Source: Dipteris shenzhenensis (Eukaryota). From it: a stretch of 64,000 nt of DNA. Numbering within the stretch: position 1 is the first letter of the stretch; each line of letters begins with the position of its first letter. A program made the translations under genes and the position numbers. Below are positions 22,480-46,600 of the stretch, piece after piece. The notes under the pieces are model-generated. The model was not told the DNA's origin, did not search any database, and saw only the letters and a program-made list of their open reading frames with translations. The stretch lies in the NCBI GenBank assembly GCA_047967505.1, contig CM106538.1; one strand, given 5' to 3'.

Positions 22480-23339
22480 GTACTTTTATGCTTTTGTGTA
22501 TGCATTTACATATACCTTTTTCTCCTCACAACTTGTATTTATATAAATCTAGCTCTATTCTCATATGTAGCACATCTCCATGAAAGTGCAACATTTGAGC
22601 CTTTTCAAAGAAAAGAATGTCTCTTGTTTGTCCCTATTTTTACACAAAATGCCGTTTTCATTTGTTTCCTAGCTTATATTTGTTTGTGACGTACAATTTA
22701 AAGATTACTCTAGTATCAAGACGGTTTAACTCTTCAATGCTTCGTACAATCTTTCCCTCATGTTTTGATGTTGTTTCTTCATTTTTGGCTTGAAATGTTC
22801 TCATCTTGCAAAGGACATACTCAAGAAGATCCTTCTAAAAGAAATTTTTAAGTCAATGGGTTTTGAATACCAAAGGGAAGATGGATTTGTGATGATATCA
22901 TCCTTATCCTCTTGCTTATTGTTCTGAGTTGTGGTGATTGAAACATAAGATAAGTGCCCAATCTAGGGTAGTGTAGCGGACATGCAAATTCTTTGAATTT
23001 TCGTCCAAGTGGTGATCAGTTGTTCAAGTATATCGAAGTATCTTATGCGGTTGCAGAAGCCCCAACAGTTAAAAATTCTCAACTTTAGAATAATGAAATC
23101 TGAATTTGTACGATTGGATATTTTCAAGTCTTACAAAGGTATAGTATAGCCCTTAAAGGCATAAAAAGTGTAGTGTGAAACTATCAGGGAAGCAATCCTA
23201 AAGTTGTTAAGTTATGTACTATTGGGACAGGTGTTGGTGTCTAAAAATGATTTGTAATGGGCAAGAAGAGTACACACCACTCTCACTAACTGTGCCTGTG
23301 CTATAACTACTAGGCGTGGAAGCATGGAATGCTAGCTTT

Positions 23340-23953: not shown

Positions 23954-26900
23954 GAAAGAACGAAAGAAAGAAAGAAAGTTTATTAAAGTCTTCGGAAGAC
24001 CGATAGGTCTATGAGACTGTGAAAATTCTGATACAACGAGCTGTGGTAGTGGAGCTACTAAACGAGCATCCATACCAATGCAAAATGCAAAATGCAAAAA
24101 ATGCAAAAATGCAGAATGACAGTACTAAGTCCTAAGTACAACATAGTCATGTTGATGGTAGACTATATATCAATCTCAGCATCATCATCAATATCATCAT
24201 CATCCCTAGCAACAGCAAGATATCAGGATGGATGAGGAGGCGGAGGCATGAAGTCGGCAATAGAGTGCTGTCGGCCACTCAGAGGTGCGGTCCTGGCACA
24301 TCTCCTGGTTGTAGCGCTGCGTCTAACCAAGGCTATTGTGACCCCAGTCGGTCGGGCTCCGACTCTAAACAAGGAGGGGATGTCTCCAAGTGTGATTTGT
24401 GTGTCGACCCTTTGTCTGAGCTGTCGGGTCACGGGCTCCGTGTCACGGTCATGTCGAGGCCTCGTCTCGTTGGGGTCCATGTGATCTAGCTGAAAGAACT
24501 CCGTGATAGAGCTTTGAGAGGGATCAACCAAGGAAGAAGTCTGCTCCTGTCTCCGCGCTCAAAGTATCCTCTCGCGGTGTCTAAGTGCCTCATGAATGAA
24601 ACCTGCCAAACACCGCTGGTCTGGGTAGGAGAGGAAACGGGCTAAAATCCCATAACTATCCCTGAAGAGGCAGTGGAAACATCCTCGGATCTCATAGTAC
24701 ACAGGACACCTGAAGATGAAATGCTCCTCTGTCTCAACCTCCTGTATGTCACGCAGTGTGTATATGCGTCGCTCCATGGGTAGTCGCTCTGCTCTGCCGC
24801 TCTCGATGCAAAGTCTGTGTGAAGAGACCGGGAACTGCCCAAGAGAGATCCTCAGCGAGTGGGGTAGGTGAATCTGTGTGTATCCTGGTGGGTCAATGAA
24901 ACCCTCTGCTGTGATATGTAAGAAGTGATCTCTGTAGAAGCTAAGCTTCACTGGGAGTTCACTCGGTTCCAACCAGGTCTGAAAAGTGTGTAACTGTAGT
25001 AGATCCTCACAGATAACCTGGTTGACCTCGTGTGATAAGAGGGGAGAGAACGGAGCATCCATGCTATACTGGAAGGGAGGTAGTCTATCCATGTGGAGCC
25101 CCAGTTGCTCAAACCATCTCTTTGTACGTGCATACCATCACCTTTGATCTCCTCCTGCTGCAAGTGCCATAGAAGAGGATAGAGCTATCCATGGTAGCCT
25201 GCTACGCCCTGAGGTATAATCTTATATTCCCTAACTCGGTACAGATATGTGATGACTTGAAATGCAGCATCTAGATGTAAAGGGGGTAACCCAAACTCAG
25301 CCTGAATGATCTGGTGAGGAACGGATGACTTACCACGAATCATCCATGATAACATGAGAACCTGTAGCCGCTCCACACGGGCCCACTCTGTATCCGACAA
25401 GTCTGGCCCCCAACAAGGGCTGCCGTACATCCCTGTTGGGCAACCCCTTGGTGCGTGGATCTTGAAAGTGTGAGCGGAAGCACTGCCTCTCTAGCCTGGC
25501 CAATGAGGCATACCCTCTACTCAAGCGTGCCTTCATCGCGGGTCTCATAGTGAAGCTTGGTCCGGAGAAGATAACCCCAGATAAGTGTATGATGAAACTA
25601 TCTCAACAGATGACTCCGCAAATGTGAACTGCTCCTGACGCGTGATGGCTCGAGATATATTGAAGATCATGACCTTGGTTTTACCCAGGTTGACCTTCAA
25701 ATCATGAGACTCACAAAAGGACTGTAGTGCGTCTTGGTGTCTCTGAAGCCCCTCTGTTGATGAAGACAAGAGAGCCACATCATCTGCATAGAGCAAAATC
25801 TGGATCAGCGTGCCCGCAAGAGAGCAACCTACACCCCCCTGTGTCTGCATCACTATCTCAAGCTCGTCAAGGTAGAGGCCAAACAAGGTAGGCGACAAAG
25901 GACAGCCTTGTTTGACCCCGATGGTACTCATGATCTCGTCTGTCCACCTGGATCCTGCTCGAACTCTGCTAGAAACTCTCTCGTAAAGTGCCATGACAGC
26001 CCAAATGATCTCCTGGTCATATATGAGGCGGGCTCTCAGGACCGTGTCAAATGCCTTGCGGAAATCCACAAAGCAACAATAAACCCTCTGCTTCCGTGAC
26101 CTCGCCTCCTTGATGATACATCTGAGCGTGAGAATGTGGTTCATGGTTCCATGATCACGCCGAAATCCGGCCTGTCTTGTTGCTCTAAGTCCTCGACACT
26201 CTGCAAGTTTGCTAACCTTGGAGTCAAGTACTGATGCATAAATCTTGGACATGACATGTCCAATCATAGTGGTCCTGTAGTTCTCCGGGCTCATGGGATC
26301 CCTTGCCTTGTGGATGGGTGAGATAGTGTTAATGGTTCGAGTGTGTGGAAATCCCAAACAAACCGCTTCATTAAAAAGCTTTGCTAAGATCGGGGCTAGG
26401 AGGTTAATCCTATATGCAATGAACTCAGTGCATAGCCCCTCATGATCCTTCGCTCGGCCATTATGAAGTTTCATTATGGCATCCTTTACCCCTCCTCTAG
26501 TGAAGAGGGTGCAGGATGTGGGACGTGGCATGTGTAAGAGGTTAGGGATTGGCTGATTTGGGATGTCATAAAGTGTGTGTGCATAATCAAACCAGATCTG
26601 GGTGTCAGTGAGTGGCGGAGGGGACCGTCCTTCTAGAAATCTCCGCCAGAAGTCCTTAGAGTTGTTACTAAACAAAATGTTCAGTAGCTCCTCCTCGTTT
26701 CGATGAACGAAGTCTAGTTTCTTTCTCCGTACCAGTCCACGGTATTCACGTAGCGTATCTGGTGCGCTTGGAAGACTGTTTTTGGTTTCGAATCTGAGTT
26801 GACGGCGTAAGGCCTTACACTCATCATCGTACCAACTATTACAGGGTACAGTTCCAAGGGGTGGTGGGTGGGTGGTGTGGGAAAAAGCATGAATGACAGC

Positions 26901-28630
26901 CTCGTGTAGTGAGCGGGTGACAAGGGCAGCACGATCCTGTAAAAGGGGTATGAAGTCAATATAAGCGAGAAGTATGTACAGACGGCCAGAGTAAGAAGGT
27001 GAGCGATCCCGATCAAAGCGTATATCGTGGTTGGTGGAGTAAGCACTGAGTGGGGTGGAAGATGCTGTGTGAAGGGAGGTGGAGATGCGAAAGAAAAGGT
27101 ATGTATGATCAGCCCCTGGGGGGAGAGGTGCTACAATGAAGTCAGTAATGCGAGATGTGAAGACAGGGGATCCCATGATGTAATCAACAACACTGGAGCT
27201 CCCCCCATGTGGAAAGCATGTGAAACCACCTGAAGCGTTTCATCTGTCAAGACCATTATAGATAATGAGATCATGTATCCTGCCTAGGTCTAATAGGGCC
27301 TGCCCATAAGATGAGAATGGACCTCGCCTGTCAGCTGAAACCCGTAGCATACCTGCCTCCTCAAGGTCAACATCTGCCAGTAGAGTGGAATCATCTCTGA
27401 AGTCAAGAAGTGGTACCTGACGGGCCCTTGTCCTCGCGTTGAAGTCCCCCACTAGAAGGACTTCTCCGTGGCCAGAAAAGTCAACGATGGACTGATAGAG
27501 GGCAGCAAATGGGGATGTCTCATCATCACCTCGAATATCTTTGGCAAAGTGGGAGCTCCCGGGGGAAAGTAGCAAACTGCGACAAACAGATCCCGGCTGT
27601 CCATGTGTCATCCGAATCCAAAGAAATCTGAATGTGTATCTCTTTGCTCTACTGAAATGATCCCATGAAGTGTGGATATGAAAAGGACTGCAACTCCACC
27701 TGAACCTCGAACTCCTCCTGTACCCCTCGTCTCATCTCTGTAGGCAGACTCCCATGTATATCCACTGACTATTGGAAGAGGGCGCTGTGGACTCTGATGT
27801 GTCTCTGCATAGAAGACTATGTTGTGGCTTGTATAGGATTCCGAGAAGTTTCCTGGTTCTGACCATAAGGTACCATTACAGTTCCAAATGGTGCAGGACA
27901 GTGTCTCGGATATCTGAGTCTCATAGACCCCGCTTCCCTATGTAGCGGAGGGGGCAGGTGCCCTACGAGGGCCTGTAAGAAGTCGTCCCTCCCGTACCAC
28001 TACCCACTTCCCCTCCTTCCGGGCCTGATCCCGCTGCTGCAGCAAAGAGCGCCTCTCCTCAACCTGTAGAGGTGTGAGGTCCTCATCCATAGAGATCGTT
28101 GGCTGATCTCGAAGGAATGACCTGCGTCGTAGAGTTGAAAGTCATGCTTGAGTGTCATGGAATCGTATGATCAGGGGTTGCTCTCAGTTGGGATCTCTCC
28201 CCACCCGCCATGCCCTCTCTATCCTGTGCTCAGCCACACCCAAGGTAGCGGCCACGAACGTAGTCACATCTACCATCGGTGTAGCCTCAGTGCGTGGGAT
28301 CCCGCGTACTCTGATGTTGAGAGCCTTACTGGCTCTCTGCTGTTGCTGCTCCATGAGGGTAGTCGAAACGGTTACCCTTGCGGGTTCCCGTTTGGCCACG
28401 TCAACCCATCTGGAAGTCTCGTCAATAGCAGATTGCATGCTCGCAATCTGTGCCTCGACCACCGGGGTACTCCTTGGGACAGTGTGTATGGAGCTGCATG
28501 ATATATTGTCTGAGTCCCAGAATAAGACCCGCTTGCTCCCGAATGGCCCTAGCCTGCTCCTGTATGATGCGGCTCTGCGCCTGGTTGAAGTGGACCTGCT
28601 CCCGTGCGAAGCGAGTCAGCTCCATCTCAC
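23954..28630 (-). mobile_element. Near full-length RTE-X-like non-LTR retrotransposon (ORF1 ~28625-27940; ORF2 EN-RT ~27925-24559, frameshifted)
   Basis: EN motifs IWNCNG, FYAETH, GSGGVAV, LLVGDFNART; RT motifs QAGFR, CCFVDFRKAFD, GVKQGCPLSPTLFGLY, LLYADDVALL; C-terminal SSHRLCIESGR...ETEEHFIFRCPVY; tail AATAAAC(TTTC)n; ORF1 LNIRVRGI...AWRVG...DEDLTP. Confidence 0.85.
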
Positions 28631-28816
28631 GCTCTCAAAGTCCAGGAGTAGAACTGCCAGCCTCTGCCCGCTCTGCATAGCCCACTCAGTGGCTTCCCAA
28701 AAGGAAAAGATATTGTCAAATATGCTCCTGCCATGCACAAAGCCTGTCTGAGTATCATGGATGAGGTCTGGAAGAAGGGGCTGCAATCGGATGCTGATTG
28801 ATTTGGAAATAGGCAT
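28631..28816 (-). mobile_element. Short L1-clade RT fragment abutting the 5' end of the RTE-X-like LINE
   Basis: ISIRLQPLLPDLIHDTQTGFVHGRSIFDNIFSFWEATEWAMQSGQRLAVLLLDFE. Confidence 0.8.
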
Positions 28817-30449
28817 GCATGGAAAAGCAGTCGTTGATTTGATCTACACTAGATTGGGATCATAGCTATAAATTTGTTTGAATGCGATTTGTTATCGAAG
28901 GGCAGCAAATGTGGAAGAATCAGAAGAGACGTGTGGGCAAGCATAGTCTATATCAAGCTTTTCCCATGAATCACATAGTTCTTCATTCCCTTCTGCTTAT
29001 GCCTTCCCCCTTCACACCTTAAGATCACAAAGTGGTTTCTTTGAATGCCTTTCATCACATAAAGGTGGTGTTTTTCAGCATGTATACTGCAGATTGTGTT
29101 TCGTGCATACATTGCGCGTACCATATGAAATTATTGTCTCAACCTTACACTCTCCCTCTTTCGCCGTCTTTATGTGTTACATGTTTACCCCTTGACAAGC
29201 ATTCTATGTTTTCTTAAGTTGTTTGTATCTATTGTGAAAAATGTTTACATTATTGTCCCTTCCAAAATCAACCTCTGAAAAGGTGTACATATCAAGCAAG
29301 TGCTTTGTTCCGTGAACTCACAACCAGTTACAAACTCATCTTGAATGCAGTAAGTAACACACGATCCATTGACAGTTCATTATGCTTCCTCCTTGACTTG
29401 AATGGGGCAGGGCTGGTTTTTCTGCTGACCCCCTGGATAGGGGATATCTGAAATTCCAGCTCGTGGGCTCTCTTTGAACAGCTGATCATGGGCTTCATAA
29501 TAATTCAGTCCTGCCTGCCCTGTTCCTGTTAAACCATTTCATAAAAGCAGCCTCACATTAGTACTTTATTGGTCAACTTGAACATTATTAGCTCCTCCAG
29601 CCTGCTCACTGCAATTCTGCCCCCCCTCTCCCTCGCCGTAGCTTCCTTATATCCCTTCCTTCTACTCCCACCTCTCCCCTCCCCCCTTCCTGTTCCCTAC
29701 CTGCCCCTTCTCCAGCTCGTTTCAGTGCACTACTGCCCTGTTCCAGCCCCCTGCAGGTTGTGTTTGGAGCCAGAGGATGCTGGTGTCTGTCCGAGCTATT
29801 CCGTGGAGTTGTGCCTGGTGGTTTCCCTCTTTGTGCAGCTCATTGGCCCCTTTTCACTGCTGTGAATGGCGTCTTGCATCTCCTGGCTGGTTGAGCCAGT
29901 TTTCGAGTGCCTCCTAGCCCATTTGGGCTTACGTTTAAACCCCCTTGGTAGCTGGTGCCTGCTGGGTGAATTCTTTACTGGCATTTTAGGCCAGCTTTGA
30001 TGCTCTAGACAGCAAAGTACTTTGAGCCGGGGTATCTAAAGTTTCGAAAGCAGACTTGGGCAAATTTGGTGACCTTTGGTGCTCCTTCCTTATCTTTGGG
30101 AGCAGCTCTTGCTGCCTGAGGATTTCTTGTGATAAACTGTGGACTTTGGCTCAAATTTTGAGCTTTCTTGGTGTGGGGGCAGCCCTTGGCCTAGCACTCT
30201 CTTGAGCCTGGTTTTTTTGCGGCTGGTTGGCAGTGGTTTGGAAGGTCTGAGCCTCCTTTTCTCTGCTGTGAGCTCCTTTTTTGCTGTGCTATCCTTTTCC
30301 CGCAAGCCTTTGGAGGTTCTTGGTCCTCCTTAGCCTCTTATTTTCCCTTTTCTGCCCCCCTTCCATTCTAGCAGCGCAGCATTAGTGCTTGTACTTTTTG
30401 AAGGATGAATCTTGGTAATGACCCTTGGTTTGGCAGCAAGAAGGGCTCA

Positions 30450-33400
30450 CATGGCAGCACCCTTGACTCTCCAAGCCGTTAAGGTTCTTTTCTCTCCAAT
30501 GGACAAATATCAGGTTAGGAATACAGTCTAGTCACTCCAGGATAGAGCTGTGGTGGGCATTATCGTTGGACTCACTCCCATGAGAGTCTGGTGTGTGATC
30601 TAGGCGAATCTAGCACTGGATGGTGACCACATCTAGGAGGTCACCAATTGAGTTCCCCGGACACCACTCAGGACCTTGTGGAGCAAAGCCCCATTTTCCT
30701 TGGCCCTCACGTTGTGTACTTCATCCCCTGTTATCATGGGTTCACAGTCAAGGATGTGGACTCGACAAATCATGTGCCTTGCTTCTTGGTGATGCTCCGC
30801 TTCTCGAGGCTCCCAAGGGACTTCCCCACCAGTTTACACAGCCTCGGTCGTTGTAGATGATGGAGTGCCTTGAATCAGGATGATTGTAGAGATCCTAGCG
30901 TCCCTTCTTGAAAAGTTTTCCTTGAGACCTTGAACGGGGGCGAGTTCTGTCAGAGGATTGATGCCTCCAGACTTCCAGGATAGTGCGTCCGATGTAGGCA
31001 GATGGGTCATTTGGCACGGGCTTGCCCTAGGAGGTAGGGACGGATTGCACCTCTTCAGGCTAGACAGAAATAGCAGAAGCAGACAGATCTCAGCGTCTCA
31101 TTAGGCCGCAGCTAGAAGGAGTCCGGGATCCCTTGGCTAGAGCCCTCCGAGGGGCATGGACTAGGGTAGATAAGAAGCCTAGCAAGAAGGCCACAAAGGA
31201 CCATAGGAGTCTTACTAGAATTAGACAGTGGGTAGCAACAACATCCTCTCCTCAGAGGGAGAGGCTAGATGGGTCCTCTTCTCAGAGGGAGAGGCGAGAT
31301 GGCTTCCCCTCAGGCCATCCCCGGACTTCCTAGGGTGAGGTATTCTTCTACGTCCCAACGGACCCACAAGTGGCAGAGGCCCATCGTTCTCAGTCTTCTG
31401 CACCACGTTAGGCCTCAGGGGAGGCCGCAACTCTGTCTCCTCGTGTTCCCCTAGTCCTCTCCTGCTTTGCCTAGATCCTCTCCGTCCTCCCCTTCTCCTC
31501 TGATCTTCTCTGCATCCTTGTGTTGCAGTCACCCTCACTACGTGCCCCTTGCTTGCCTTGTCTTTGGCTCACCCTTCTTCTTCCCCACTGCAACGGTTCC
31601 CCCTTCCTCCTCTTCTCGCCTCCCGCTCTCGAAGTCTCTGCCTCCTAAAACGCCTAAGCCTTTGGGCAAAGGCAAGGTAGAGACTTCCTTCGCTTAGCCT
31701 CAGGCTTCTTTTGTGCAGTCAAAGCATGGCCTTCTCCTTGCTCAGGACTCATCTTCTATGGAACATGTGGAGGTAGGTTCGTTTGGGAGAGACTAAAATG
31801 AAATCGTTTAGACTTCAGAAGCAGTTGTAGCTTGAATGAAGAGATTTGGACTATTTTTTGATTAGCCTTCTCCTTTAGTGCTAGCCTTCGTCATGGCTGA
31901 GTTTGCCCTTCCCTCCGAAGTGTTGACAGAAACTCAGTACGAAGACTTTGTATAAATGGATGCTCAATTATGTGTGGGTGTGTGGATTTGTATGTGTGAG
32001 AGCATACTTTTATACTATGGTCTACACCCACTGTTGGGCGCTGATGACGTTAGTGGGGATATCATAGTAGCTAGTCCTTGCTATGCGTGATGGAGTTTAT
32101 GGTTTTCAATCTTATGAGTGACCCTCGTGAGATTGAGACTGCTCTATGTTGTGTTTTTAGGGATGAGTTCGGGATTCATCTAGGTATATGCGGAGGCAGG
32201 CATAGATCCCTAGCACATTTTCCCTGAATGATGTAGTGGGCCCAGAAGGTAGGCATAGATCCCAACATGCCTCTGATGCGTTGTTGCACGGATGAGGAAT
32301 ATTTTCCTTACCTCCTCAAGATTTGGAACATGGTGAGCTAGAACATGCACGAGTTTCTTGATAGTGCACGACAACAGCCATAGCATCTGATACTCCACTA
32401 GGAGTTCTAGAGGCTAGTTGCAGGAGTGGCATTGGATTTTCTACTGATTCAGAAGCATATGTTCTCACCATCGGATATCAGTCGTCGCCATTCCTTGCTT
32501 TTGGGGAGGGACTTAGAGGTGTGGTCCCTGGCTTAGGCCGGAGTGGCGAGGTAGTGGCCCCAAACGTTTTTGATCAGGGTCCCTGCGTGTAGGCGACCCC
32601 CCTGTCTTTTGGAGGCGGTTGATAGAGGGCATGCTAAACGTTGACTCTTGGATTGCTCGAGGACAAGCAAGGGGAGTTTCTTTCTCATAGGTGTCCGCAA
32701 TGGAGAGGAGTACGTGCGAGTTGTTCATTTCATGATCAACGGTCATGATCTATGGAGAGAGGCGGAGTTCACCAGGCTCCCTGGCAGCCTTCTCTTTTCT
32801 TTTGGCCACCGAAGGCATGATGGCCTTCTAGAGCGCCTTGACAGGTTTTACATGGGGGATTGGACGATGTACAGAGTGGGTTCCATGGTGGTATTTTGGC
32901 AATCACAACGATATCAGATCACTCCTAGATTGTGATGCACTTAGAGCAGCCTTGACATGGACTCTCTCAGAAGGGGGTCTGCATTTAGATGCTCTACTTC
33001 AGGAGGAGGAGGTATAGTAGGACATGTCTACGATTTGGGAGCAGCCAGGGGGTGCTTTCGAGGATGGATGGGCTACTTGGATTGGCAGACACGATACACG
33101 ATTCAGAGGAGTTGTGAGGGGCTCCATTCCCTGGCTCTTGGTTGGAGGCATGCTCTACAAGAGTGCGAGAGAGAGCCCCGAGAAGGGATTCGACATCTAT
33201 AGAGTGCCCTAGGGAGCATGATTTGGACTCTCAGTGTCTCGACGGTTGGTACGAGAGTGCGCGGCTTGATCTTTATTGCATAGAGGTCCGATGAGCCGAG
33301 TTCTCTTATCACTCTTCTCGAGCCAGATGGGTACAACAACGAGACAAGACGACCATACAGTTCTTGTAGACCACTAGGCCACGATGAGCCGAGACTCAGC

Positions 33401-35231
33401 TTCAGCGGTAGAGGGACGCGAGTGATCATAGACTTCTATTGCCAATTGTTTTAGTTCAAGAAAGAGTCTCTTTCTATTTTTGTAGCCCAAGAGGCAGTGT
33501 GGGATCAGATTTTGATAGTAGTCCCTCCGAGCTTGAGTTGGTAGTTAGAGGCACCGTTCATTGATGAGGAGCTCTAGGAGGCCCTAAAGTCCCTTCCGGC
33601 TTAGAATCGCCTTGGGGAGGATGGCTTGAATTTGTTCTTCTTTCGCTACTTCTGGGAGCATATCCTCACCTCCCTTCGGCTGGCTTTTTAGGAGATCTTT
33701 GACTTAGGCTCTCTTCCTTAGTCCTTGAGTTGAGGTTGGATTTGTTTGATCCCGAAAGGGAAGAGGGGGGGGTCAAACATTCGTTAGTGGAGGCCGATCA
33801 TGTTGCTGGACACTGCTCAAGATCTTAGCCAAGGTCTTGAGTTTGCGGTTGAGGCCTCACCTCGTTGATATCATCCAGGATACACAGATAGATTTTGTTT
33901 AGGAACGGAGCATCTTAGACAACATCTTAACCTTTTGGGAGGCAGTGGATTGGGCACGAGAGGAGTCTTAGCCTATCACAATCCTTCTTTTGGATTTCGG
34001 GAAGGCCTATGACAGGATGGGGAGTGGTCCTTTTTGGAGGGCACTATCAGAGGATGGACTTCTTGGAGAGATGGATTCGAGGGGTCTCGGCTATGTATGC
34101 CGGGAGTACTAGTCAAATGCTCATTGGAACCACATGGGAGAGGCCTTTGCCCTGTATTGCTCAGTACGACAGGGTTGCCCCCGTCCTCTTCCTCTTTGTA
34201 GTAGAGGTTTTGGGCTACTTTTTGCATTCTCAGGTAGCAAGACTCAATGCGATGAGGCCTCCGATTCGACTTTTGGATTCAGAGTTTGCAGACGACACTT
34301 CATTCTTTGTAGAGGGCACTAGCGAAGTACTGCTTGGCCTCGAGGGTCAGGGTTTCCTCACGACGATTGAGGAGGTCTAGGAGATCCAGAATTGGGGGGT
34401 AGTGCTTGGCTTCCATTGGATTCCGAGGGCTAGGCTGCTAGGTTGGCATTGACATTTCAGCAGAGCAGTAGTTTGCTGGAGTATTGGAGATTATGCGCTA
34501 GAGAGAGTTTGGTTGAGCTCCAATATAGAAGCTTGCATCAGGATCAGATGGTACGAGGAACACTAGAGCTGGGGTTACTTGGTAGATGGTGATTCTACCA
34601 CTCTCACAGGGAGGACTCGGCATTATCGACCCAAGAGATACATAGTAGAGACTTTTTGGACAAGCTAGTAGTACAAGGTCTCAACCCAGGCTCTGAGCTC
34701 GCACTCCGACGAGGGCTTATCAGGAACACCCCCACATCGGGGGAAAGTGGCAGCAATCTTATAGATGGATCTTCTCAGAGGCTCCCCTCATAGGGAAGGG
34801 CTCCCCCATCATGCGTAGCCTTCGCAGGGTTTGGCAGTGTTTGTCTAGTGGCGGACTCATTTGGGCCAGCCCTTCGTGTCCGGAGGAGTTTGAGAGGCAG
34901 TCAATCATTTGGCACTCGGAGGTGCTGGATCAAGAGGGATGCATGCTGGGGCAGCAGACATGCATTGGTTGGGCGGGATGAGACAGTGGTGTATCTAGGT
35001 CCTTTAGGACATGGAGATGCTTCCCTGCGGAGAGAGAGGCACGAGAGCAAGCACTTTCTCATCTGAGAGGGGCAGGCACATGGATGACGGAAGCAATTGT
35101 TGGTCCACAAATCTATCCCTTAGGAATTGAGCATGCTTGCCAAGTGGGGGAGGGCAGGGAGAAGACAGGCTGTCTGGTCTGAGTCGTTCTCCATCCCTAG
35201 GAACCCTTGCTACTACTAGCGGAAAAAAAAA
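30450..35231 (+). mobile_element. Decayed L1-clade LINE in sense orientation within host intron 3
   Basis: LERLDRFY (EN), LIPKG...WRPIMLL, LLLDFGKAYDR, SVRQGCP, SEFADDT; A-run at 35223-35231; boundaries approximate. Confidence 0.75.
31778..32187 (+). mobile_element. 5'-truncated single copy of the ~560-bp structured non-coding element, inserted into the L1
   Basis: Clearly homologous to the 36699-45497 monomers; flanked by atgtggaggtagg (31765-31777) and atgcggaggcagg (32188-32200). Confidence 0.85.
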
Positions 35232-35532
35232 CCTGCTGCTGTGAGTCAAGTAGGATTGAGAAAGAAGTACTTAAAACTCTCATGATCATCCTCAGTTCAA
35301 ACTTTGATCATGAATGGGGGGAAACCGATTTGTCTCAAGCGACAGTAGTAGTTTCTGGAAACATAATGCTATGTAGAAAAGCTATGGTTATATTGCCAAA
35401 AAATGTGCAGTATAACTTTCTATTACACATATAACTTAATTGAAGGGACAACGTGGTACTTTTTAAAATCTGTTTTGAAGAATTTTAAGAAAAAACATGA
35501 TCTTCCAAAACTTAATGTTACTCATCTTGCAG

Positions 35533-35633
35533 CTCTTGAGGAGTGGCGCAAAAAGAAGTTGGATGAAGCTAGGCGGCGTGCAGAGACGGTAAAAGCCAAG
35601 CAAGAGGAATACCTGAGTTCATTGGAGACCTAA
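35533..35633 (+). CDS. Host gene exon 4 (ALEEWRKKKLDEARRRAETVKAKQEEYLSSLET*)
   Basis: Acceptor catcttgcAG|CT, phase 1 with exon 3 (G+CT=Ala). The ALEEWRK(R/K)K motif is typical of the recalled family. Total CDS 540 nt ending in TAA. Confidence 0.85.
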
Positions 35634-37038
35634 CCAGACGGTGCTCATTCGCATCAATGATCGAATCTTAAATGTAAGTATTTAAAGGCACTGACATATC
35701 AGTTTCATGTCTCGCTGTTATTAGTCTAAATTCTCTTGGTGAATTTGGTGACTTTGGGGCAGCATTCCAGAGTGCCTGCTGAGAGCACCTTTGCAAAGAA
35801 GTTTCAAATTTATGAGCGTATTTGCATAATTGAAAACAAGTGTACTATGGAGCTCTTACTGAAGTTTCAGGGATTAACTCTCATCTATGGTATAGGGCAA
35901 GTGTTTTACCTAAGAGCACACCATTGAATGGTAAATACCCCTATTGTCACAGTTTAAAGCATTTTAGTGGTTATTTCTAATTTCATTTAACAAAAGGCTA
36001 TTATCTTGACAAAATACTGAAATGTTCTGCTCATTTCAAGTTTCCAAGATCTCTGATTATTGTCCATGATACATTAGGTCTACTGGCTGTGCAATGAAGG
36101 ACTCGAATGAATATTCAAAGCCTTTATAATATTCTGCATGACTTTTGTCCTGGATTGTCTGCGGACTCTTGTTTTATACTCCGCACATTCTTTCACTTCC
36201 ACACAATCTTCAAGGTACCATAATTGGAAGAAACTGATGGATCAAGAATAATGTCTGAGAGAAGTTTCCTGAATTTTGTCCATCATCATTCATAGCTTCC
36301 TACTGGATGCAGAATGGAGGAGTAGGCTTCCTGTTCATGCTCTTGCCGTACTCTCCATTTTGGCCGCCTGTTATGTCATTTCACATCCTTTAAAACAGGT
36401 GATGAGGATTAATAAAGTTAACTGAGAGGGTCAAAAGGTTTGAAGGCATTTATTGTTCCCTTGTAGCATATTCCAAGAGGTCAAGGTATCTCTGCAAGTG
36501 TGGTTTCCTGTAGAAACTTTTAACAGTAGAATTTGAAAAGCAGTCAGTGCCGTATTTTAATTATATCACTGTCAGTGTATGGAAATTTTACAAGCACAGA
36601 AAGATTCTCAAACTCTGCTGAGGTTGACGGATGTCACGATCTCTAACGTCTAGCCTTGTCTTCCTCTCTCGTTCTTTGGTGTTAGCCTGAAAAAGCTGCG
36701 GCCTGCTGGTATTGTGATAATTCTTTCTATCTTAAATGGTGCGTTGCCCTATCAGCTAGATTTAGATTTAGATGCTCGTTGGGGAGAGACTAAAATGAAA
36801 ATGTTTAGACTTCACAAGTAGTGTAGCTTGAATGAAGAGATTTTGGACTACCTTTTGATTAGCCTTTTCCTTTAGTGCTAGCCTTCATCATGGCTGAGTC
36901 TGCCCTTCACCTCCGGAGTGCCGACAGAAACTCAGTACGAAGACTTTGTATAAATGGATGCTCAAGTATGTGTGGGTGTGTGGATTTGTATGTGTGAGAG
37001 CATATTTTTATACTATGGTCTACACCCACTGTTGGGCG

Positions 37039-40000
37039 TGTTGAGATATCAAGCTCTATCCCCGACATATCTCCTGGATGACTATCATTTATGTCACCGC
37101 CTATGTTAGTTGTACTCGTGGTGTAGTTAGACTACCACGTATGTTTTGGTTTGGGTTCACATATGAACCACGTATTCTAGGGTTTGACATATAGGGTATT
37201 TCCCTCTTCTATTGTAATTGTCGTGTGCAAAAGTGAAGAAAGGCTTCACCCTCCAACCTTGTGTCCTCTCTCTTTTGTGTGTTGTGAAGAAAGCTGAACT
37301 TGAGTCTCCTATCTCTCTCCCTTCTTCTTTACATGGTATCAGAGCCTTGTTCGTGGTAAGGAGCTCAAGAAAGCAAGCCAAGTTTGTGGTGTCCTGGTAA
37401 GAGGACCAGTGTTGCTTTCCTATTTCGAGTTTGGGAGCAAATCTCTGCAGGTAGCACAGCCAGAAGTGTCTGAGTGCACTGCTTCAGATTGAGAGGCCCT
37501 TCGCGGTGTGGCGAGAGCGCGCGGCCAGTCGGTGGAAAGGTGCCACAGAAATTGCATCGTATGCTTGTGTGCAGAGATATTGGGAGTTGCAGATTCATGC
37601 CTGTTGCCTGTTGATGCAAAATCGTCACTAGGAAGTGACTGTGTGGTGAAATACCACTTTCGTCAGTGTTGCAGATCTGCCCCTGTGAGGCTTTTTGCAG
37701 AAGTTTTGCTATTTACCCTTGTGAGGCATTTGCTGTGTTTACAGGTTGCTGTTGCAATTCGTGATTTGTAAAATGTCTGAGAATCTGTCTACCATTGTCA
37801 GTGAGAAGCTTGACAAGAACAACTTCCAAGCATGGAAGTTCCAGGATGACAAACTTCCTTATGGGAAAGGGAGTTTGGGATTACATCAGTGGTGAAACTA
37901 CAGAACCAGTTTTGGGTGCTGCTCCCACTCCTGCTGAATTGAAGGCCTTTAAAGAATGACATGAAAAAGCCAGAAAATGCTTGTATTGGCTGTCTGTTAG
38001 CATTTCAGATTCTATGATTGTGCATATACAGGATGTAGAGACACCTAAGGAGGCATGGGATACATTGGTGAAGCTGTATAGCACAAATACCAAAGCACGA
38101 AAGATGCAGCTAAAGCAGGAGTTGCACAATGTGCAAAGGAAAAATATGAATATAAATGAGTATTCCTTGAAGGTGAAAGGCCTTGCAGATTCTCTTGCCT
38201 CCATTGGAGCACCTGTTGATGATGAGGACTTAGTGTCCGTGACCTTGAATGGTCTTGGGAAAGATTATGCACAGTTTCGGACATCCATTGGAGTCCGTGA
38301 AACATTTCTTGATTTTCAGGAACTTATTGCTCTCTTGCTGAGTGAAGAGCAAAGGAATGGTGGTTCAGCCACCTCAACTTCTCAAGAGACTACTTTCTAC
38401 TCGAATACAGGTAGAGGCAGAGGTAGAGGAAGAGGCCGTTTTGGTGGCCGTGCAGGAAATCAGAACCAACAGCAACAACAGGAAAACCAGTCCTATGGAG
38501 GAGGACGTGGTAGTTCTAGAGGCAGGGGGAGCCAAAGAGGCCGTGGTTCATGGCAAAGGAACCAGCAAGTAAATAGTAGCACAGAATGCTATTATTGTGG
38601 AAAGCCTGGACACAAGAAGAATACATGCTATAAAAAGCAGAATGACATCAAAAGTGGGAAGTTGCAGCAAAGCAACTATGCATCATCAAGTGGGCATGGT
38701 GACGACAGAAATGAGCACCTTTTTGTGATGCAGCATATGGTTAACTCCATGTCAGGAGATGCTGCAGCTTGCAATGATGTTTGGTATGTTGATTCAGGTG
38801 CCTCTAACCACATGACCAGTCATGGTGAGTGGTTTCATGATGTTAGAAATTTGGATAAGCCAGGTTATGTTGAAACAGGTTATGATACTGTGTACCCAAT
38901 TACGCAGGTTGGTAAAGTGCCATTGGCTATGCAGGATGGCAAAACGAAGTACTTGCCAGATGTACTTCATGTTCCAAAAATCACTAAGAACCTGGTTTCA
39001 GTTGGCCAGATGGTTGAGCAAGGTCTGCAGGTTAGATTTAATCCTGATGGATGCTTTGTTGAGGACTTGAAAAATAAGTGCCGCTTGGTTGCGAAAGGCA
39101 ACAAAAATGGCAGAATGTTCACCTTGGATGTTGATATGCCTGAGGTGAAAGCTGCTATGTTTGCGCATGGGAGAGGTGTCATTGCAGATATTGAGATATG
39201 GCACAAGCGCATTGGGCACGTGAATATACAAAGGCTGAAATCTATGCAAACGAAAAACATTGTTGCAGGTTTGCCTAAATTCAGAGTTGAGGGAATGCAA
39301 AAGGTATGTGAAGCATGCCAAATGGGTAAGCAGGCCAGACATGCATTTCCCAAAAATGCTAAGGTGAGCAGAAGACCTTTGGAAGTGATCCATTCAGATG
39401 TTTGGACAACCAAAGCTGCTTCTATTGGTGGATGTCATTATTATGTGACGTTTATTGATGACTACACTAGGAAGGTGTGGATTTATTTTATGAAGCACAA
39501 AAGTGAAGTGTTCAGCCATTTCAAGGCTTTTAAGGCCATGGTTGAAAAAGAGAAAGGTGTGCATATTAAAGTGCTAAGATCTGATGGAGGGGGAGAGTAC
39601 TTTTCAGAAGAATTTTGTGAATATCTGAAAGAACAGGGAATTCAAAGGAAGTACTCATGCAAGTCTACCCCTCAGCAGAATGGGGTTGCAGAAAGGAGGA
39701 ACATGGATATTGCAGAAGTAGGACGGGCGATCCTAAATGAGAAAAACATGCCTGATTATTTTTGGGCTGAAGCAGTAGCAACTGCTGTTTATATTATGAA
39801 CAGAACTCCCACTGCAGCTGTCCATGGCATGACGCCTGAAGAAATGTATACAGGCCAAAAACCAGATATTTCTCACTTGAAGGCATTTGGTTGCATAGCG
39901 TATGTTCATGTTCCTGATGAGAAGAGAACCAAGCTGGATCCAAAGGCAGAAAAATGCATCTTTATTGGATATGCTCAGCACCAGAAAGGGTATCGCTGTT

Positions 40001-42382
40001 ATAACTCTTCCACTCGCAAAATGCAAGTGAGCAGAGATGTTGTTTTTGATGAAATGAGCAGCTGGTATGCACCAACTGTTATGGTAGGAGATGCAGATGC
40101 AGGAAATGGGAATGCTGCAATAAATGCAGAGCAGCAATCTCAAGTCTTGAGTGGACCCAGAGAGTCCTCTACTAGTGGATCTAATGCATGGACAGGGAGA
40201 TTGAGATCTAGTGAATCGTCACATGGCAGTCCTGATAGTGTTGTGCAGGTATCACATAAGGGAAAAGAAAAAGTGGACCATACTCCAGTGTTTGATGTGT
40301 CTGCTGGTAGCTCTCATGTTGATGGAGAGTCAAGCGGCTCTGAAATGAGCCTTGATGAGGAACTTGGGATTCCTTTTGTTGTTACACCTGGTGCAAGGAA
40401 AAGCAAGCATGATTTAAAGACTCCTGCAACTGATCCAGTTGTACGGAGGTCCACTCGTATTAAGTATCCAGTTGACAGGCTAAGATATGATGGGTATACA
40501 GCACATCACTATGCTTATATGGTCAAGGTTCTAGAGGAGCTTGAGCCCACATGTTTTGAGGATGCAGCAGGGCATAAAAATTGGGAAGCAGCTATGGATG
40601 AAGAGATGGCTGCCTTGGATGCAAACCACACTTGGGATTTGATGTCTTTGCCTCATGATAAGAAGGCTATTGGCTGCAAGTGGGTTTACAAAGTAAAGCA
40701 CAATGCTGATGGGTCTGTTAGCAGGTACAAGGCAAGATTGGTTGCCAAAGGTTTTGCGCAGACATATGGAATTGACTATGAGGAAACTTTCAGCCCAGTT
40801 GCAAGGATGGCAACCGTGAGAGCAGTAATTGCTATGGCTGCTGCAAAGGGATGGTCTTTGCATCAGATGGATGTGAAAAATGCCTTCTTGCATGGTGATT
40901 TGCAGGAAGAGGTTTATATGATGCAGCCAGAGGGTTATGAGGATAATGCACACCCCGATTTTGTATGCAGGTTGTGCAAAGCCTTGTATGGCTTAAAACA
41001 GGCGCCGAGGGCATGGTCAGACAAGATAGGGCAATATCTTGTCACTATTGGATTTCAGATTTTCAATTCAGATTTTTCACTTTATGTGAAAAGGACAAAC
41101 AAAGGGATTGTGCTTATCGTCATCTATGTTGATGACTTGATTATTACAGGTGATAGTGATGCAGACATTAATGAAGTGAAGCTGCTGTTGAAGCATAAAT
41201 TTGAGATGAAGGATTTGGGAGAGCTGCGTTACTTCTTGGGCATTGAGGTTATTAGATCCCCGAGTGGGATATGGCTGTTGCAAAGGCAATACGGTTTGGA
41301 CATGCTGTCCAAATATGGGATGATAGGCTGTAAGCCTATTTCTGTTCCATTGGAGCAGAATGTGAAGCTCAATGCAGAGACAGGTGAGCTTCTTGAAGAT
41401 ATTACTATGTACAGGCGCATAGTAGGTAGCTTGATTTACATGACTATAACCAGACCAGATTTGAGCTATGCTGTGGGGCTGGTGAGTCAGTTTATGCAGG
41501 CACCGAGGAAGCCACATTTGGATGCGGCTAGGCGCATACTCCGGTATGTGAAGTCCACATTGCATTATGGACTGCTTTATGAAGCTGGGTGTGCATTACA
41601 GGTATATGGATACACAGATGCTGACTGGGCTGGTAGTGTCTCAGACAGGAGATCTACTAGTGGTTTTATGTTTTCCCTTGGGAGTGGTGCCATCAGTTGG
41701 AGCAGCAAGAAGCAGCCAACAGTTGCCTTGTCGAGCACAGAGGCTGAGTACAGGGGTGCAGCAATGGCTGCATGTGAGGTAGCTTGGTTACGGAAGCTAC
41801 TTGCAGATATGGGACACTCAGTTCATGCAGCAGTTGTCATTCATTGTGACAACATTAGCAGCATCATGCTTGCTAATAACCGAGTTTATCATGCTAGAAC
41901 GAAGCACATTGAGGTGCATTATCACTTTGTGAGAGAGAAGGTTCTAGCTGGTGAGATTGATCTTGTCTATGTCAGCACTGAGGAGCAGGTGGCTGATATC
42001 TTTACGAAGGCATTGGGTACCGAGAAGCTTCGCAGATTTAGGAGCTTGCTTGGTGTACGTGAGATGGATTTGAGCTTGAGGGGGAGTGTTGATATATCAA
42101 GCTCTATCCCCGACATATCTCCTGGATGACTATCATTTATGTCACCGCCTATGTTAGTTGTACTCGTGGTGTAGTTAGACTACCACGTATGTTTTGGTTT
42201 GGGTTCACATATGAACCACGTATTCTAGGGTTTGACATATAGGGTATTTCCCTCTTCTATTGTAATTGTTGTTGTGTGCAAAAGTGAAGAAAGGCTTCAC
42301 CCTCCAACCTTGTGTCCTCTCTTTTGTGTGTTGTGAAGAAAGCTGAACTTGAGTCTCCTATCTCTCTCCCTTCTTCTTTACA
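37039..42382 (+). mobile_element. Full-length young Ty1/copia LTR retrotransposon
   Basis: 5' LTR 37039-37333 and 3' LTR 42087-42382 (TG...CA, only a few differences); PBS tggtatcagagcc 37334-37346; PPT gagggggag 42078-42086; TSD GGGCG/GGGCA. Confidence 0.97.
37773..42129 (+). pseudogene. Copia gag-pol polyprotein (gag, CCHC, PR, IN, RT, RNase H), disrupted near its N terminus
   Basis: ATG at 37773 (MSENLSTIVSEKLDKNNFQAWKF), +1 frameshift at ~37841 and a TGA (Trp codon) at ~37957, then a 1382-aa open frame with CYYCGKPGHKKNTC, WYVDSGASNH, DD..E core, YVDD and ADIFTK. Confidence 0.93.
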
Positions 42383-45300
42383 GGGCACTGATGACGTCAG
42401 TGGGGATGTCATAGTAGCTAGTCCTTGCTATGCATGATGGAGTTTATGGTTTTCAACCTTGTGAGTGACTATCATGAGATTGAAACTGCATTATGTTGTG
42501 TTTTTGTGTTTTTAGAGGATGAGTTTGGGAATGTTCCTGGATTCATCTAGGTATATGCTTCTGCCGTATTAGCGGACATGCAAATTTCACCTCGTGAAGT
42601 TTTCGTCCAAGTTGCGGTCTGCTGGTATTGTGATAATTCTTTCTATCTTAAATGGTGCGTTGCCCTATCAGCTAGATTTAGATTTAGATGCTCGTTAGGG
42701 AGAGACTAAAATGAAAATGTTTAGACTTCACAAGCAGTTGTAGCTTGAATGAAGAGATTTTGGACTACCTTTTGATTAGCCTTCTCCTTTAGTGCTAGCC
42801 TTCATTTTGAATCTGCCCTTCATCTCCGGAGTGCCGACAGAAACTCAGTACGAAGACTTTGTATAAATGGATGCTCAAGTATGTGTGGGTGTGTGGATTT
42901 TTGTGTGTGAGCATATTTTTATACTATGGTCTACACCCACTGTTGGGCGCTGATGACGTCAGTGGGGATGTCATAGTAGCTAGTCCTTGCTATGCATGAT
43001 GGAGTTTATGGTTTTCAACCTTGTGAGTGACTATCATGAGATTGAAACCGCACTATGTTGTGTTTTTAGAGGATGAGTTTGGGAATGTTCCTGGATTCAT
43101 CTAGGTATATGCTTCTGCCGTATTAGCGGACATGCAAATTTCACCTCGTGAAGTTTTCGTCCAAGTTGCAGCCTGCTGGTATTGTGATAATTCTTTCTAT
43201 CTTAAATGATGCGTTGCCCTATCAGCTAGATTTAGATTTAGATGCTCGTTGGGGGGAGGGGTGGTTTGAGAGCTTTAGCACAACATCTTAGATGGGGTAG
43301 TTCTTGGAAAACACTCCTCCACCCTTGCTTAGCTAATTGCAAGCAAAAAACTTCAAAACTATATTAAAATAAGAGGTCCCGGGAGGCTCCCCATCCCAGT
43401 TTTGTCCTAACAATGTGTACTTAACCATGTAGGTTTTAAAATTCCATTACCAATTCAACTCTCCATAGATTCCACACACAATAGTTGGATTAGAAAGAGG
43501 TCTCTTTTTTTTTTTTTTTGCTCTTCATGCTTTTGGAGGGATTGCTCTCTCCCCCCAAAAGCATGCTTTTTTGGGGGGATTGCTTCTTTCCCCCCAAAAG
43601 CCTATTTTTGGATTGCTTCTTCCCCTTCTTTGCGTGATTTCTTGCCTTCTTCCTCCGCCGTCCTCGTCCTCCTCCTTCGCTTCCTTCCGTCCTTTCATCC
43701 GTGCCACTCCGTTAAGGCCTCCTACGCTGCTGCTGTTTCGGCGCCCTCCTCGTCATCTCTTCCTCCGCTGTGCTCTTTCCCCTGCCGTCCTCGTCCTCAG
43801 TTTCGGTTGCGCTCTTTCCCTCTACCGTCCTCGTCCTTAGTTTTGGCCTGCACTACCACAGTTTCCTCTACCATCCTCGTCCTCAGTTTCGGCTGCGCTA
43901 CCACAGTTCCGGCTGGCTGCGCTACCACAGTTCCCTCTGTCATCCTCGTCATCAGTTTCGTCTACGCTACCATAGTTTCGGTTGCCTTCGCCACTCATTT
44001 CCTCTGCAGCACAGTTTCAGCGCCGCTCTGCTTTTCCTCCTCCGTAGCATAGTTTCAGTGCCGCTCTACTTTTCCTCCGCACATGTTTTCTTCACAGTTA
44101 TTCAGTGGCAGGTTCGTAGCCCTCAGCAGGCCCATTCTTCTTCGCCAGCGTGACTGTCAGTGAGGCTTCTGTGTCGTCAACAACAGTCTGAAGCTTCTCC
44201 TTTTTCGAGTTAATCTCACGGAACCCCTCTTCACGAAATCCCCTTTGGACAAAATCCCCTCAGCTCCTACGATTGCTTGAAATCCAAAGAGCAGAAGCTC
44301 ACAAACAACAATGGCTACTCAATCATCCAAGTAAGAAAATGAAAGAAATCGAAAGTGTACCTAATTCATGCATGTTCTCCACTTTCTCCATTTCGGAACA
44401 CCACGATTTGAAACAAAGAGTCTTGTAAAAGTAGGAATCTCAAAATGTGATTTGAAAGTAGGGTCTTAAGTATATGATTTGACTTTCATATCTTCAAATT
44501 TGAAATTTGAATTCTGTATCTAAGATTAATGAAAATGTTTAGACTTCACAAGCAGTTGTAGCTTGAATGAAGAGATTTTGGACTACCTTTTGATTAGCCT
44601 TCTCCTTTAGTGTTAGCCTTCATCATGGCTGAGTTTGCCCTTCACCTCTGGAGTGCCGACAGAAACTCAGTACGAAGACTTCGTATAAATGGATGCTCAA
44701 GTATGTGTGGGTGTGTGGATTTGTATGTGTGAGAGCATATTTTTATACTATGGTCTACACCCACTGTTGGGCGTTGATGACGTCAGTGGGGATGTCATAG
44801 TAGCTAGTCCTTGCTATGCATGATGGAGTTTATGGTTTTCAACCTTGTGAGTGACTATCATGAGATTGAAACTGCACTATGTTGTGTTTTTAGAGGATGA
44901 GTTTGGGGATGTTCCTGGATTCATCTAGGTATATGCTTCTGCCGTATTAGCGGACATGCAAATTTCATCTCTCGTGAAGTTTTCGTCCAAGTTGCGGCCT
45001 GCTGGTATTGTGATAGTTCTTTCTATCTTAAATGGTGCGTTGCCCTATCAGCTAGATTTAGATTTAGATGCTCGTTAGGGAGAGACTAAAATGAAAATGT
45101 TTAGACTTCACAAGCAGTTGTAGCTTGAATGAAGAGATTTTGGACTACCTTTTGATTAGCCTTCTCCTTTAGTGCTAGCCTTCATCATGGCTGAGTCTGC
45201 CCTTCACCTCCGGAGTGCCGACAGAAATTCAGTACGAAGACTTTGTATAAATGGATGCTCAAGTATGTGTGGGTGTGTGGATTTGTATGTGTGAGAGCAT

Positions 45301-46379
45301 ATTTTTATACTATGGTCTACACCCACTGTTGGGTGCTGATGACGTCAGTGGGGATGTCATAGTAGCTAGTCCTTGCTATGCATGATGGAGTTTATGGTTT
45401 TCAACCTTGTGAGTGACTATCATGAGATTGAAACTGCACTATGTTGTGTTTTTAGAGGATGAGTTTGGGAATGTTCCTGGATTCATCTAGGTAGATATTA
45501 GCCTCAAAAAGCTGTGTAGTAGCTCTTTTGAAGTTCCAGAATCTTTTGTGAGCGGAGCAAAGTTGCCAAGGAGGATTTTCTTTACAAAGTGATGTGAAAA
45601 GCAGATGCAAATAGTATCTCGTTATCACATGGGATGCCTTGATCCAATTTCAAACACAATTCTCTAACAGGCTGGCATAATGAAGTATTTTTTAAAAAGG
45701 CAGGCCCTTTTTTTGTGCCAGAGGGACTTCTTTTTTGTCATTCGAAAGATATCTTTTGCCATCTTGGTTTTCACATGCACAATTTATTGGGTGTACATGT
45801 GGATGATTAGCTCGCTGGTAGGCATTGGATGTTGTTAGTACCTGCCATTGTCGAAGTCCCACTAGGATATACTGTGGGTGGTTGTGATTGTTTGCATACT
45901 AGGTAAAATGCCATTTTTGGGCAAGTGGCTCTACTCCTTACTCCTTATTCTGCTTGCTTGCCCCTTCCTCTTTCTCTCCCACTTCATTTGGTTCCCCCTC
46001 TCCACTCTAGGCTGTTGACTGCCTTAAGGCTTGTTATTGGGCTTTTACTATTTTATCATATCGGGGTAAGCTTCCTTTGCTTCTTGATCAATACTGGGGG
46101 TTGATGTGCTTGGTATTGTTTCAATATGTTGAGGGATACACAAGGGTGTTTTATCTCTTGAGATCTTCACTTTTTGACTGAGAGTTTTTGCCAAGCTTAT
46201 TATTTTTTCCTCCTTTTTATTACAATTATCAATTGTGGCATCACAATTTGTGTTGTAACTATTTGATTTTCAATGAAAATGATTCCAAGGGGTACATAAA
46301 TTTTACTTCAGTGGGCCATTGAGGTTTGGCTCTAATTGGATAATCCTTGCATGCATGCCCAACTCCGTAGTCTCTACAC

Positions 46380-46600
46380 ACAGGTTGAAATGTATTTGGG
46401 CTACTTTATGTGTGGTGATCCAACTATACTCTATTTCAACAACGTGAGTAATATTTACTTGGCAAAGAAAACTAGTGTTTCATGCCAAAACAAAAACATA
46501 TTGAAGTGTATTATCACTTCATTAAGAAAGTTCTTAGTGGGTGAGATTGGTCTTGTTCAAGTTTGAATAAGAAGTAGTTAGCTACTTCCTATAACATCTT
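46380..46600 (+). mobile_element. Decayed copia RNase H fragment
   Basis: PTILYFNNVSNIYLAK followed by frameshifted FHAKTKHIEVYYHF-like sequence. Confidence 0.55.

Follow-up and report, generated by a model that had tools for sequence, protein, structure and literature searches.

How does one incomplete unit of a tandem repeat come to occupy a site of its own, away from the array in which its relatives lie? This question is raised by a 64,000-nucleotide stretch of the genome of Dipteris shenzhenensis (contig CM106538.1 of GenBank assembly GCA_047967505.1; hereafter the window), which contains a single 5′-truncated copy of a non-coding unit of 562 base pairs (bp) at 31779-32191, here called the solo copy, together with an array of four such units at 36699-45496. 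The repeat family most likely spreads by way of an RNA copy that is inserted by machinery of the long interspersed nuclear element (LINE) type. Specifically, we put at roughly one half the probability that the repeat is a non-autonomous, satellite-like retroposon without poly(A), recognized through a hairpin and with the + strand as its sense strand, and that both copies arose from it by target-primed reverse transcription; the grounds are the fixed 3′ end, the variable 5′ end and the duplications flanking the two copies, which differ in length (13 and 17 bp). An even chance is also what we would give to the view that the 562-bp family is normally arranged head to tail and that the solo copy goes back to a retroposition event of its own, older than the array.

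The solo copy is an insertion independent of the array

At 413 bases (31779-32191), the solo copy is only part of the 562-bp non-coding unit; by alignment to the array monomers, 31779-32189 on the + strand corresponds to monomer positions 138-562. Within the window, 31779-32191 matches five stretches, all of them within 36.7-45.5 kb, at 81-93% identity, and comparison with the array monomers gives BLAST identities of 88-93% over 399-427 bp and ungapped identities of 92.3-93.4%. The copy terminates at ...GGATTCATCTAGGTATAT, and an extra GC that follows is matched by the monomer that comes next as well as by the flanking repeat; because ATGC is common to the monomer and the duplication, the homology may reach 32191. 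The 3′ termini of the solo copy and the array agree to about 2 nucleotides (nt), at ...CATCTAGGTA[T/G]AT, which by simple arithmetic is about 1-1.6% likely for random ends in a 562-bp unit. The 5′ starts differ, lying at monomer position 138 in the solo copy and at 55-58 in the array.

Relative to the array consensus, the solo copy carries 24 substitutions, of which 18 are transitions and 6 are transversions, and the alignment has 14 indel columns. These differences are mostly private, and contigs from other sequencing runs show the array base at many such positions; the solo copy is therefore older and separate, and no duplicate of the adjacent array. The preliminary description of this DNA had proposed a second, independent insertion that shares the array's 3′ end and starts about 80 bp further in. 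On these points the data agree with it: the ends coincide to within about 2 nt of the 562-bp unit, the start is displaced by 80-83 bp, and the solo copy has flanks distinct from those of the array, a duplication of its own and greater decay.

The solo copy is bounded by two direct repeats of 13 nt on the + strand, identified by direct comparison: ATGTGGAGGTAGG at 31765-31777 on the left and ATGCGGAGGCAGG at 32188-32200 on the right. The same two positions had been described as a target-site duplication of about 13 bp with two C/T differences, and this is what is seen there; one of the two differences lies in a CG context and the other in a CAG context. When pseudo-insertions of the same length were placed at random in the window, with a boundary slack of ±4 and ±6 nt, 0.85% of 20,000 placements gave a direct repeat scoring at least as high as the solo pair, which makes the pair moderately significant against chance and not overwhelmingly so. 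A second copy of the flanks of the solo copy is not present in the window.

Just upstream of the two duplications lies a common motif, TTCTWTGG, found on the + strand as TTCTATGG at 31754-31761, 3 nt upstream of the solo duplication, and as TTCTTTGG at 36672-36679, 2 nt upstream of the array duplication. Seven of the 8 positions match, a level of agreement reached by 1.9% of 20,000 randomly drawn pairs; this figure is to be read as that of a motif chosen post hoc. A target preference is possible.

A four-unit array within a 17-bp duplication

The 562-bp unit consists of a 57-bp linker that can form a hairpin and a 505-bp body; 44935-45496 serves as the reference monomer. With its inserts removed, the array at 36699-45496 resolves into one 5′-truncated monomer, which begins just past the linker, and three complete monomers behind it; the array monomers are 96.7-98.4% alike. 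On the + strand, alignment places the first part of monomer 1, beginning just past the 57-bp linker, at 36699-37038; the rest of monomer 1, monomer 2 and the start of monomer 3 at 42388-43258; and the rest of monomer 3 with monomer 4 at 44528-45496. The array terminates at 45496 with ...GGATTCATCTAGGTAGAT, followed by a single extra A at 45497.

Direct comparison shows the array to be flanked on the + strand by copies of a 17-bp duplication at 36682-36698 and 45498-45514, TTAGCCT[G/C]AAAAAGCTG, with one mismatch. None of 20,000 random placements matched it. The 5′ junction shows microhomology, in that the target reads AAGCTG and the monomer AAGTTG. The linker between monomers cannot stem from unequal exchange between the duplication copies, and the same monomer junction is also found elsewhere (see below); on the reading favored here, the array was inserted as a multimer.

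Two later sequences interrupt the array. A Copia retrotransposon with long terminal repeats (LTRs) lies inside monomer 1 on the + strand at 37039-42382, its LTRs (37039-37333 and 42087-42382; 295 and 296 bp) being 97% alike, and has a 5-bp duplication (GGGCG/GGGCA) and a primer site of the tRNA-Met type. Its polyprotein frame (37960-42126) runs for 1389 amino acids (aa) with no stops and contains gag, protease-region, integrase and reverse transcriptase (RT) domains. This element entered monomer 1 after the array had been inserted. Monomer 3 holds an unclassified insert of 1269 bp (43259-44527; strand not assigned), which has no duplication and at whose site about 9 bp of the monomer are missing. 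The insert contains a T16 run and internal tandem repeats of 38-69 bp at 43531-44078, and has no Pfam match.

At 22962-23010 there is also a stand-alone fragment that corresponds to the monomer junction: ATCTAGG(G)TA is followed by two exact matches, of 17 and 13 bases, to the 57-bp linker. The fragment keeps the linker hairpin with a different apex and stops where the first monomer of the array begins. We considered the linker-like part (22974-23010) as a third insertion and rejected it, since no duplication was found; nor does a monomer body adjoin it.

Structure of the unit and classes of element considered

Each of the four array monomers ends in a hairpin that, in the last of them, lies at 45457-45488 (+ strand; 14 bp with a 4-nt loop, by folding) and is followed by an 8-nt tail, AGGTATAT, at 45489-45496. 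The last 55 nt of the monomers fold with z scores of -4.0 to -5.2. In the solo copy folding reveals a 9-bp remnant of this hairpin on the + strand at 32161-32181, with the 8-nt tail at 32182-32189; its apex has been lost through an 11-nt deletion, and a contig from one of the other runs (X5, introduced below) has those 11 nt at that place. Whole monomer RNA folds modestly better than shuffled sequences (z -2.7 for the + strand and -2.4 for the - strand), and on this basis a viroid-like rod was rejected.

No open frame in a trimer of the monomer exceeds 62 aa. Likewise, terminal inverted repeats are absent, the best head-to-tail inverted match being 6-9 of 80 nt, and ARAGORN finds no tRNA in the unit. 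A search of both strands of 31000-46500 against Rfam, with E up to 10, returned no family at threshold, and none of the nine weak matches was to a ribozyme, 5S, 7SL or small nuclear RNA. The + strand of the unit contains several T4-T5 runs, which would stop RNA polymerase III (Pol III).

These properties speak against most familiar classes of mobile element. A strict short interspersed nuclear element (SINE) is made unlikely by the lack of a tRNA, 7SL or 5S head (Rfam, ARAGORN) and by the T4-T5 runs on the + strand, and a poly(A) passenger mobilized by L1 by the lack of an A-rich 3′ end and by junctions, GGAAC/ATGTGG and TTGGTG/TTAGCC, that are unlike TTTT/AA. A DDE transposon or miniature inverted-repeat transposable element (MITE) was rejected because the unit has no terminal inverted repeats and its duplications, at 13 and 17 bp, are not of fixed length. 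Those duplications, together with ends of CGGCC/TTCGTT and ...GGTATAT, likewise set the unit apart from an LTR retrotransposon or solo LTR, which would have TG...CA ends and a duplication of 4-6 bp; the nested Copia element, with its duplication of 5 bp, conforms to this. The presence of duplications also argues against a Helitron, as do the 5′ ends (CGGCC... and TTCGTT...) and the continuation of homology for 6-7 nt past CTAG into GTA[T/G]AT. A hammerhead ribozyme at CTGATGA was rejected for want of a GAAA in register. With respect to Penelope-like elements and retrozymes the picture is mixed: no hammerhead was found, and tandem insertion and variable duplications are present, in that the four-unit array lies within a 17-bp duplication.

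The features expected of a LINE-type retroposon are found in part. Duplications of variable length, inside the usual span of about 7-20 bp, are present, as is a common 3′ end with variable 5′ truncation in two to three cases; a 3′ poly(A) or simple-repeat tail is absent, and nothing else in the window has the last 120 nt of the element, as a partner LINE would. The features of a satellite are found as well, namely head-to-tail monomers (three full and one truncated in the array, plus a tandem junction in a contig of run X4) and a copy number reflected in word depths of hundreds to thousands in runs X1 and X7.

The repeat family in other sequencing runs

Seven runs from other organisms share words of 31300-32700, each with a small share (0.05-0.06); none of them is listed as RNA. 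Four of these (X1, X7, X4 and X5), whose kinds are guessed (RNA in the case of X1 and X7), were compared with the window as contigs at 80% likeness. All four cover 31779-32191, with summed word depths from tens (X4) to thousands (X1, X7), and the flank bins in the same four runs stand at 0 or below 4. In a 509-nt contig of X4, 32191 is followed by 133 other letters and then by 31779, and the monomers of the window predict a spacing of 133-135; because the two spacings agree, the tandem unit with its linker is a feature of the family. In a contig of X1, 32189 is followed after 6 letters by 31821, a joint that would be a third case, in which the same 3′ end abuts a copy truncated at another point. 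In X7, a loose-end consensus continues with monomer sequence upstream of 31779, as expected if the solo copy is truncated. Among the 18 loose-end rows listed, of 294, none lies behind 32189-32191.

The coverage is uneven in X5, in which the central 270 bp or so are far deeper than the rest of the element. In this run (organism C), a part of about 70 bp (32005-32071) reaches a summed word depth of more than 200,000, with the ends of the element below 300; this sub-part seems to be a far more abundant repeat in organism C. A 24-nt pattern from the middle of the monomer had no match in the metagenome_contigs, viral_contigs or genome_contigs collections, and a linker pattern had none in metagenome_contigs.

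Flanks of the solo copy and LINEs in the window

The solo copy had been thought to interrupt an older L1, and this holds for one side. In the right flank, a decayed L1-like ORF2 (the N-terminal part of the RT and RT motifs) can be followed in read-through frames on the + strand at 33542-34400. Reading through from 32201, residues 448-538 (33542-33815) resemble residues 448-538 of human L1 ORF2p with E values of 3e-5 to 8e-5, no R2 protein being among the matches, and the RT motifs at 33825-34400 follow in a frame shifted relative to 33542-33815. By the residue numbering of human L1 ORF2p, this ORF2 would start some 70-110 nt to the right of the solo insertion. All that the left flank yields is a CCHC knuckle at 30981-31028, and this match is weak (E 0.007); read-through frames of its minus strand gave nothing, and no open frame spans the rejoined flanks of the solo copy. 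Furthermore, when 83 open-frame pieces from the flanks were searched against Pfam, the one LINE domain to emerge was a weak RVT_1 match at 28619-28843; otherwise, the roughly 1.6 kb on either side of the copy gave none. The solo copy may thus sit inside a decayed L1-like element or at its 5′ edge.

The window as a whole is transposon-rich and plant-like, with Copia-type and Gypsy-type domains and two kinds of LINE. The LINE at 24077-28400 on the minus strand has an RT (25548-27239) whose closer matches among solved structures are R2 proteins (E 1e-24), L1 ORF2p scoring less well (E 6e-13). Upstream of it, in read-through frames, lie motifs resembling an ORF1 and the start of an endonuclease, and toward the 3′ side of this LINE there is a (TTGCATT)n run (24077-24118). 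On the minus strand at 28637-28810, another RT fragment of the L1-like kind shares 52% protein identity over 58 aa with 33825-33998 on the + strand and appears to be cut off by the adjoining LINE. Other tandem repeats of the window are a 360-bp unit present three times in a Copia-like region (18703-19792) and a nested array of 13-bp and 117-bp units (49098-49528).

A model of insertion and its alternatives

That an RNA served as intermediate, which kind of enzyme acted on it and what the hairpin does are all inferred, and we picture the events as follows. A + strand transcript of one or more monomers would be captured by reverse transcriptase and endonuclease of the LINE type. Synthesis of complementary DNA (cDNA) would be primed on the nicked target and would have a fixed start, 8 nt past the 14-bp hairpin (...CATCTAGGTATAT). 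The cDNA would then be extended toward the 5′ end of the RNA and stop at a variable point: for the solo copy this would have been position 138, and for the array, which presumably arrived as a multimer, position 58 in the fourth monomer reached. Staggered cleavage of the second strand would finally create duplications of variable length, 13 bp in one case and 17 bp in the other. Such duplications are of the order of those of a plant L1, for which PMC8091179 gives about 13-16 bp. Because poly(A) is lacking, recognition would be of the "stringent" kind, by way of the 3′ hairpin and tail, and not of the poly(A) kind used by L1. The proposal in the preliminary description that the element is mobile, has a defined 3′ terminus and uses the + strand as template is upheld insofar as the pattern of ends and duplications fits it; the 3′ terminus itself is drawn from two to three cases.

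Several observations weigh against target-primed reverse transcription of such a retroposon. The defined 3′ end is taken from two copies in the window and one contig joint, and may be just the tail end of a larger element. Neither 3′ junction has a poly(A) or microsatellite tail, with at most one A (45497) to be seen, and the nick sites GGAAC/ATGTGG and TTGGTG/TTAGCC are unlike the TTTT/AA target of L1. The last 120 nt of the element recur in none of the LINEs of the window, and the solo duplication, at 0.85%, is just moderately significant. An empty-site joint was not found among the four runs, in which flank cover is 0 or below 4. In addition, many contigs in X1, X5 and X7 contain just parts of the element; given this and the very deep cover confined to the central 270 bp or so in X5, the family appears to be heterogeneous or to share modules with other repeats.

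It is possible, if unlikely, that the same mechanism acted on a different template, the repeat being the tandemly repeated 3′ untranslated region (UTR) of an autonomous LINE whose copies are heavily 5′-truncated inside the repeat. Severe 5′ truncation is the rule for LINEs, the evidence from ends and duplications fits this explanation equally well, and the window does contain a LINE that, judged by its nearest solved structures, is not L1-like; satellites from LINE 3′ UTRs are, moreover, tabulated in PMC9659126. Nonetheless, neither the monomer nor its last 120 nt occurs in any LINE of the window, no listed contig piece was seen to join the repeat to coding sequence (as far as placements, which come without contig letters, can show), and the array starts exactly at the boundary between linker and body with its duplication directly upstream. 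Spread at the level of DNA is a quite unlikely alternative, in which a piece of satellite, such as an extrachromosomal circle or a rolling-circle product, is captured at a staggered break or by template switching and the fill-in duplicates the target. Satellites do shed circles, several organisms have the family in quantity and in tandem, and neither poly(A) nor an L1-like target would be called for; random breakage of circles, however, predicts no common end in two insertions and one contig joint, one fixed and one variable end are not predicted, and end joining does not usually leave duplications as long as 13-17 bp.

The shared end and the duplications also bear on two further explanations. 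Tandem insertion, variable duplications, 5′ truncation and the lack of poly(A) would all suit a retrozyme-like element or one derived from a Penelope-like element and no longer autonomous; we consider this very unlikely, since no hammerhead or other self-cleaving ribozyme was found on either strand of 31000-46500 with E up to 10, the CTGATGA in the monomer lacks a helix II and a GAAA in register, and the window showed no reverse transcriptase of the Penelope type. Finally, there may have been no insertion at all, the 413-bp piece being the relic of an older array or of a rearrangement and the 13-mer pair the product of chance. In favor of this are the 2 mismatches in 13, a score equalled by 0.85% of random placements, and a left flank that could not be tied to the right flank. 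It is nevertheless highly improbable, because the 13-mers lie exactly at both boundaries of homology, both mismatches are C/T differences at methylatable sites as would befit a copy with about 6% decay, the solo end coincides with the array end, and the duplication around the array is itself unambiguous.

Target-primed reverse transcription of the repeat could be taken one step further. In what might be called a "retro-satellite", a satellite-like family would seed whole arrays in one step through RNA, an idea that we regard as doubtful. Each monomer would then bear its own entry site for reverse transcriptase, consisting of the hairpin and the 8-nt tail. The multimer could have come from read-through transcripts, from end-to-end template jumping between monomer RNAs of 562 nt, or from rolling-circle copying of a circular RNA; in the case of template jumping or circle copying, the monomer junction of the array would correspond to the RNA's own 3′ and 5′ ends. 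If this were true, it would amount to a sequence-specific, RNA-based spread of a satellite that needs no poly(A).

Relationship to known systems

It is informative to compare the 562-bp unit with systems that share some of its properties. In LINE/SINE pairs of the stringent type, such as UnaL2 and UnaSINE1 of the eel, the reverse transcriptase recognizes a 3′ stem-loop and a short tail and not poly(A). The unit resembles these in being non-coding, in its fixed 3′ hairpin and tail, in the lack of poly(A), in its 5′ truncation and in its variable duplications; it differs in having no Pol III head, in its T4-T5 runs, in its length of 562 bp and in its insertion as a multimer, and no LINE of the window was found to share its tail. 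SVA elements and their kin are composite retroposons of primates that are mobilized by L1 and contain an internal region of tandem repeats. Like the unit they are non-autonomous, 5′-truncated and flanked by duplications of about 13-17 bp, and they have tandem repeats; in contrast, SVA has unique ends, poly(A) and a TTTT/AA target, whereas here the whole element is the repeat and there is neither poly(A) nor such a target. Penelope-like elements and animal retrozymes produce tandem or partly tandem insertions with variable duplications and no poly(A), all of which they have in common with the unit, although the hammerhead was not found here.

The array also invites comparison with satellites connected to mobile elements. 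The cetacean common satellite and Drosophila 18HT appear in PMC9659126 as satellites derived from LINE 3′ UTRs; they are like the array in being tandem repeats tied to the 3′ part of non-LTR elements, but what is described for them is an origin from LINE parts, not arrays that insert with duplications of their own. Dispersed short arrays have been linked to Helentrons and MITEs (PMC7492417 and PMC3879986). Among these, the arrays of non-autonomous Helitrons and Helentrons, such as oyster Cg170 (PMC7492417), resemble the unit in that a mobile element scatters short, satellite-like arrays and in that a hairpin lies close to the 3′ end; unlike the unit, with its 13-bp and 17-bp duplications, Helitrons insert between A and T without a duplication and have 5′-TC and CTRR-3′ ends. 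A keyword search of the open-access literature found no plant tandem repeat that inserts with long duplications of its own and without poly(A), a result that should be read as a weak negative.

Implications

Scattered short satellite arrays are usually ascribed to DNA circles, to unequal exchange or to carriage in Helitrons and MITEs. An array and a single partial unit, each with its own long duplication and both with a common end, point instead to retroposition of the repeat itself. The locus is a small-sample example of ordinary non-LTR insertion signatures with an unusual cargo, in which the signatures are clean and come from two copies and one contig joint. If the pattern is borne out genome-wide, it would provide a tractable example of a tandem repeat moving in the form of RNA, its 3′ end set by a hairpin, and the repeat family would mark which LINE lineage is active in a large, transposon-rich genome of the plant type.

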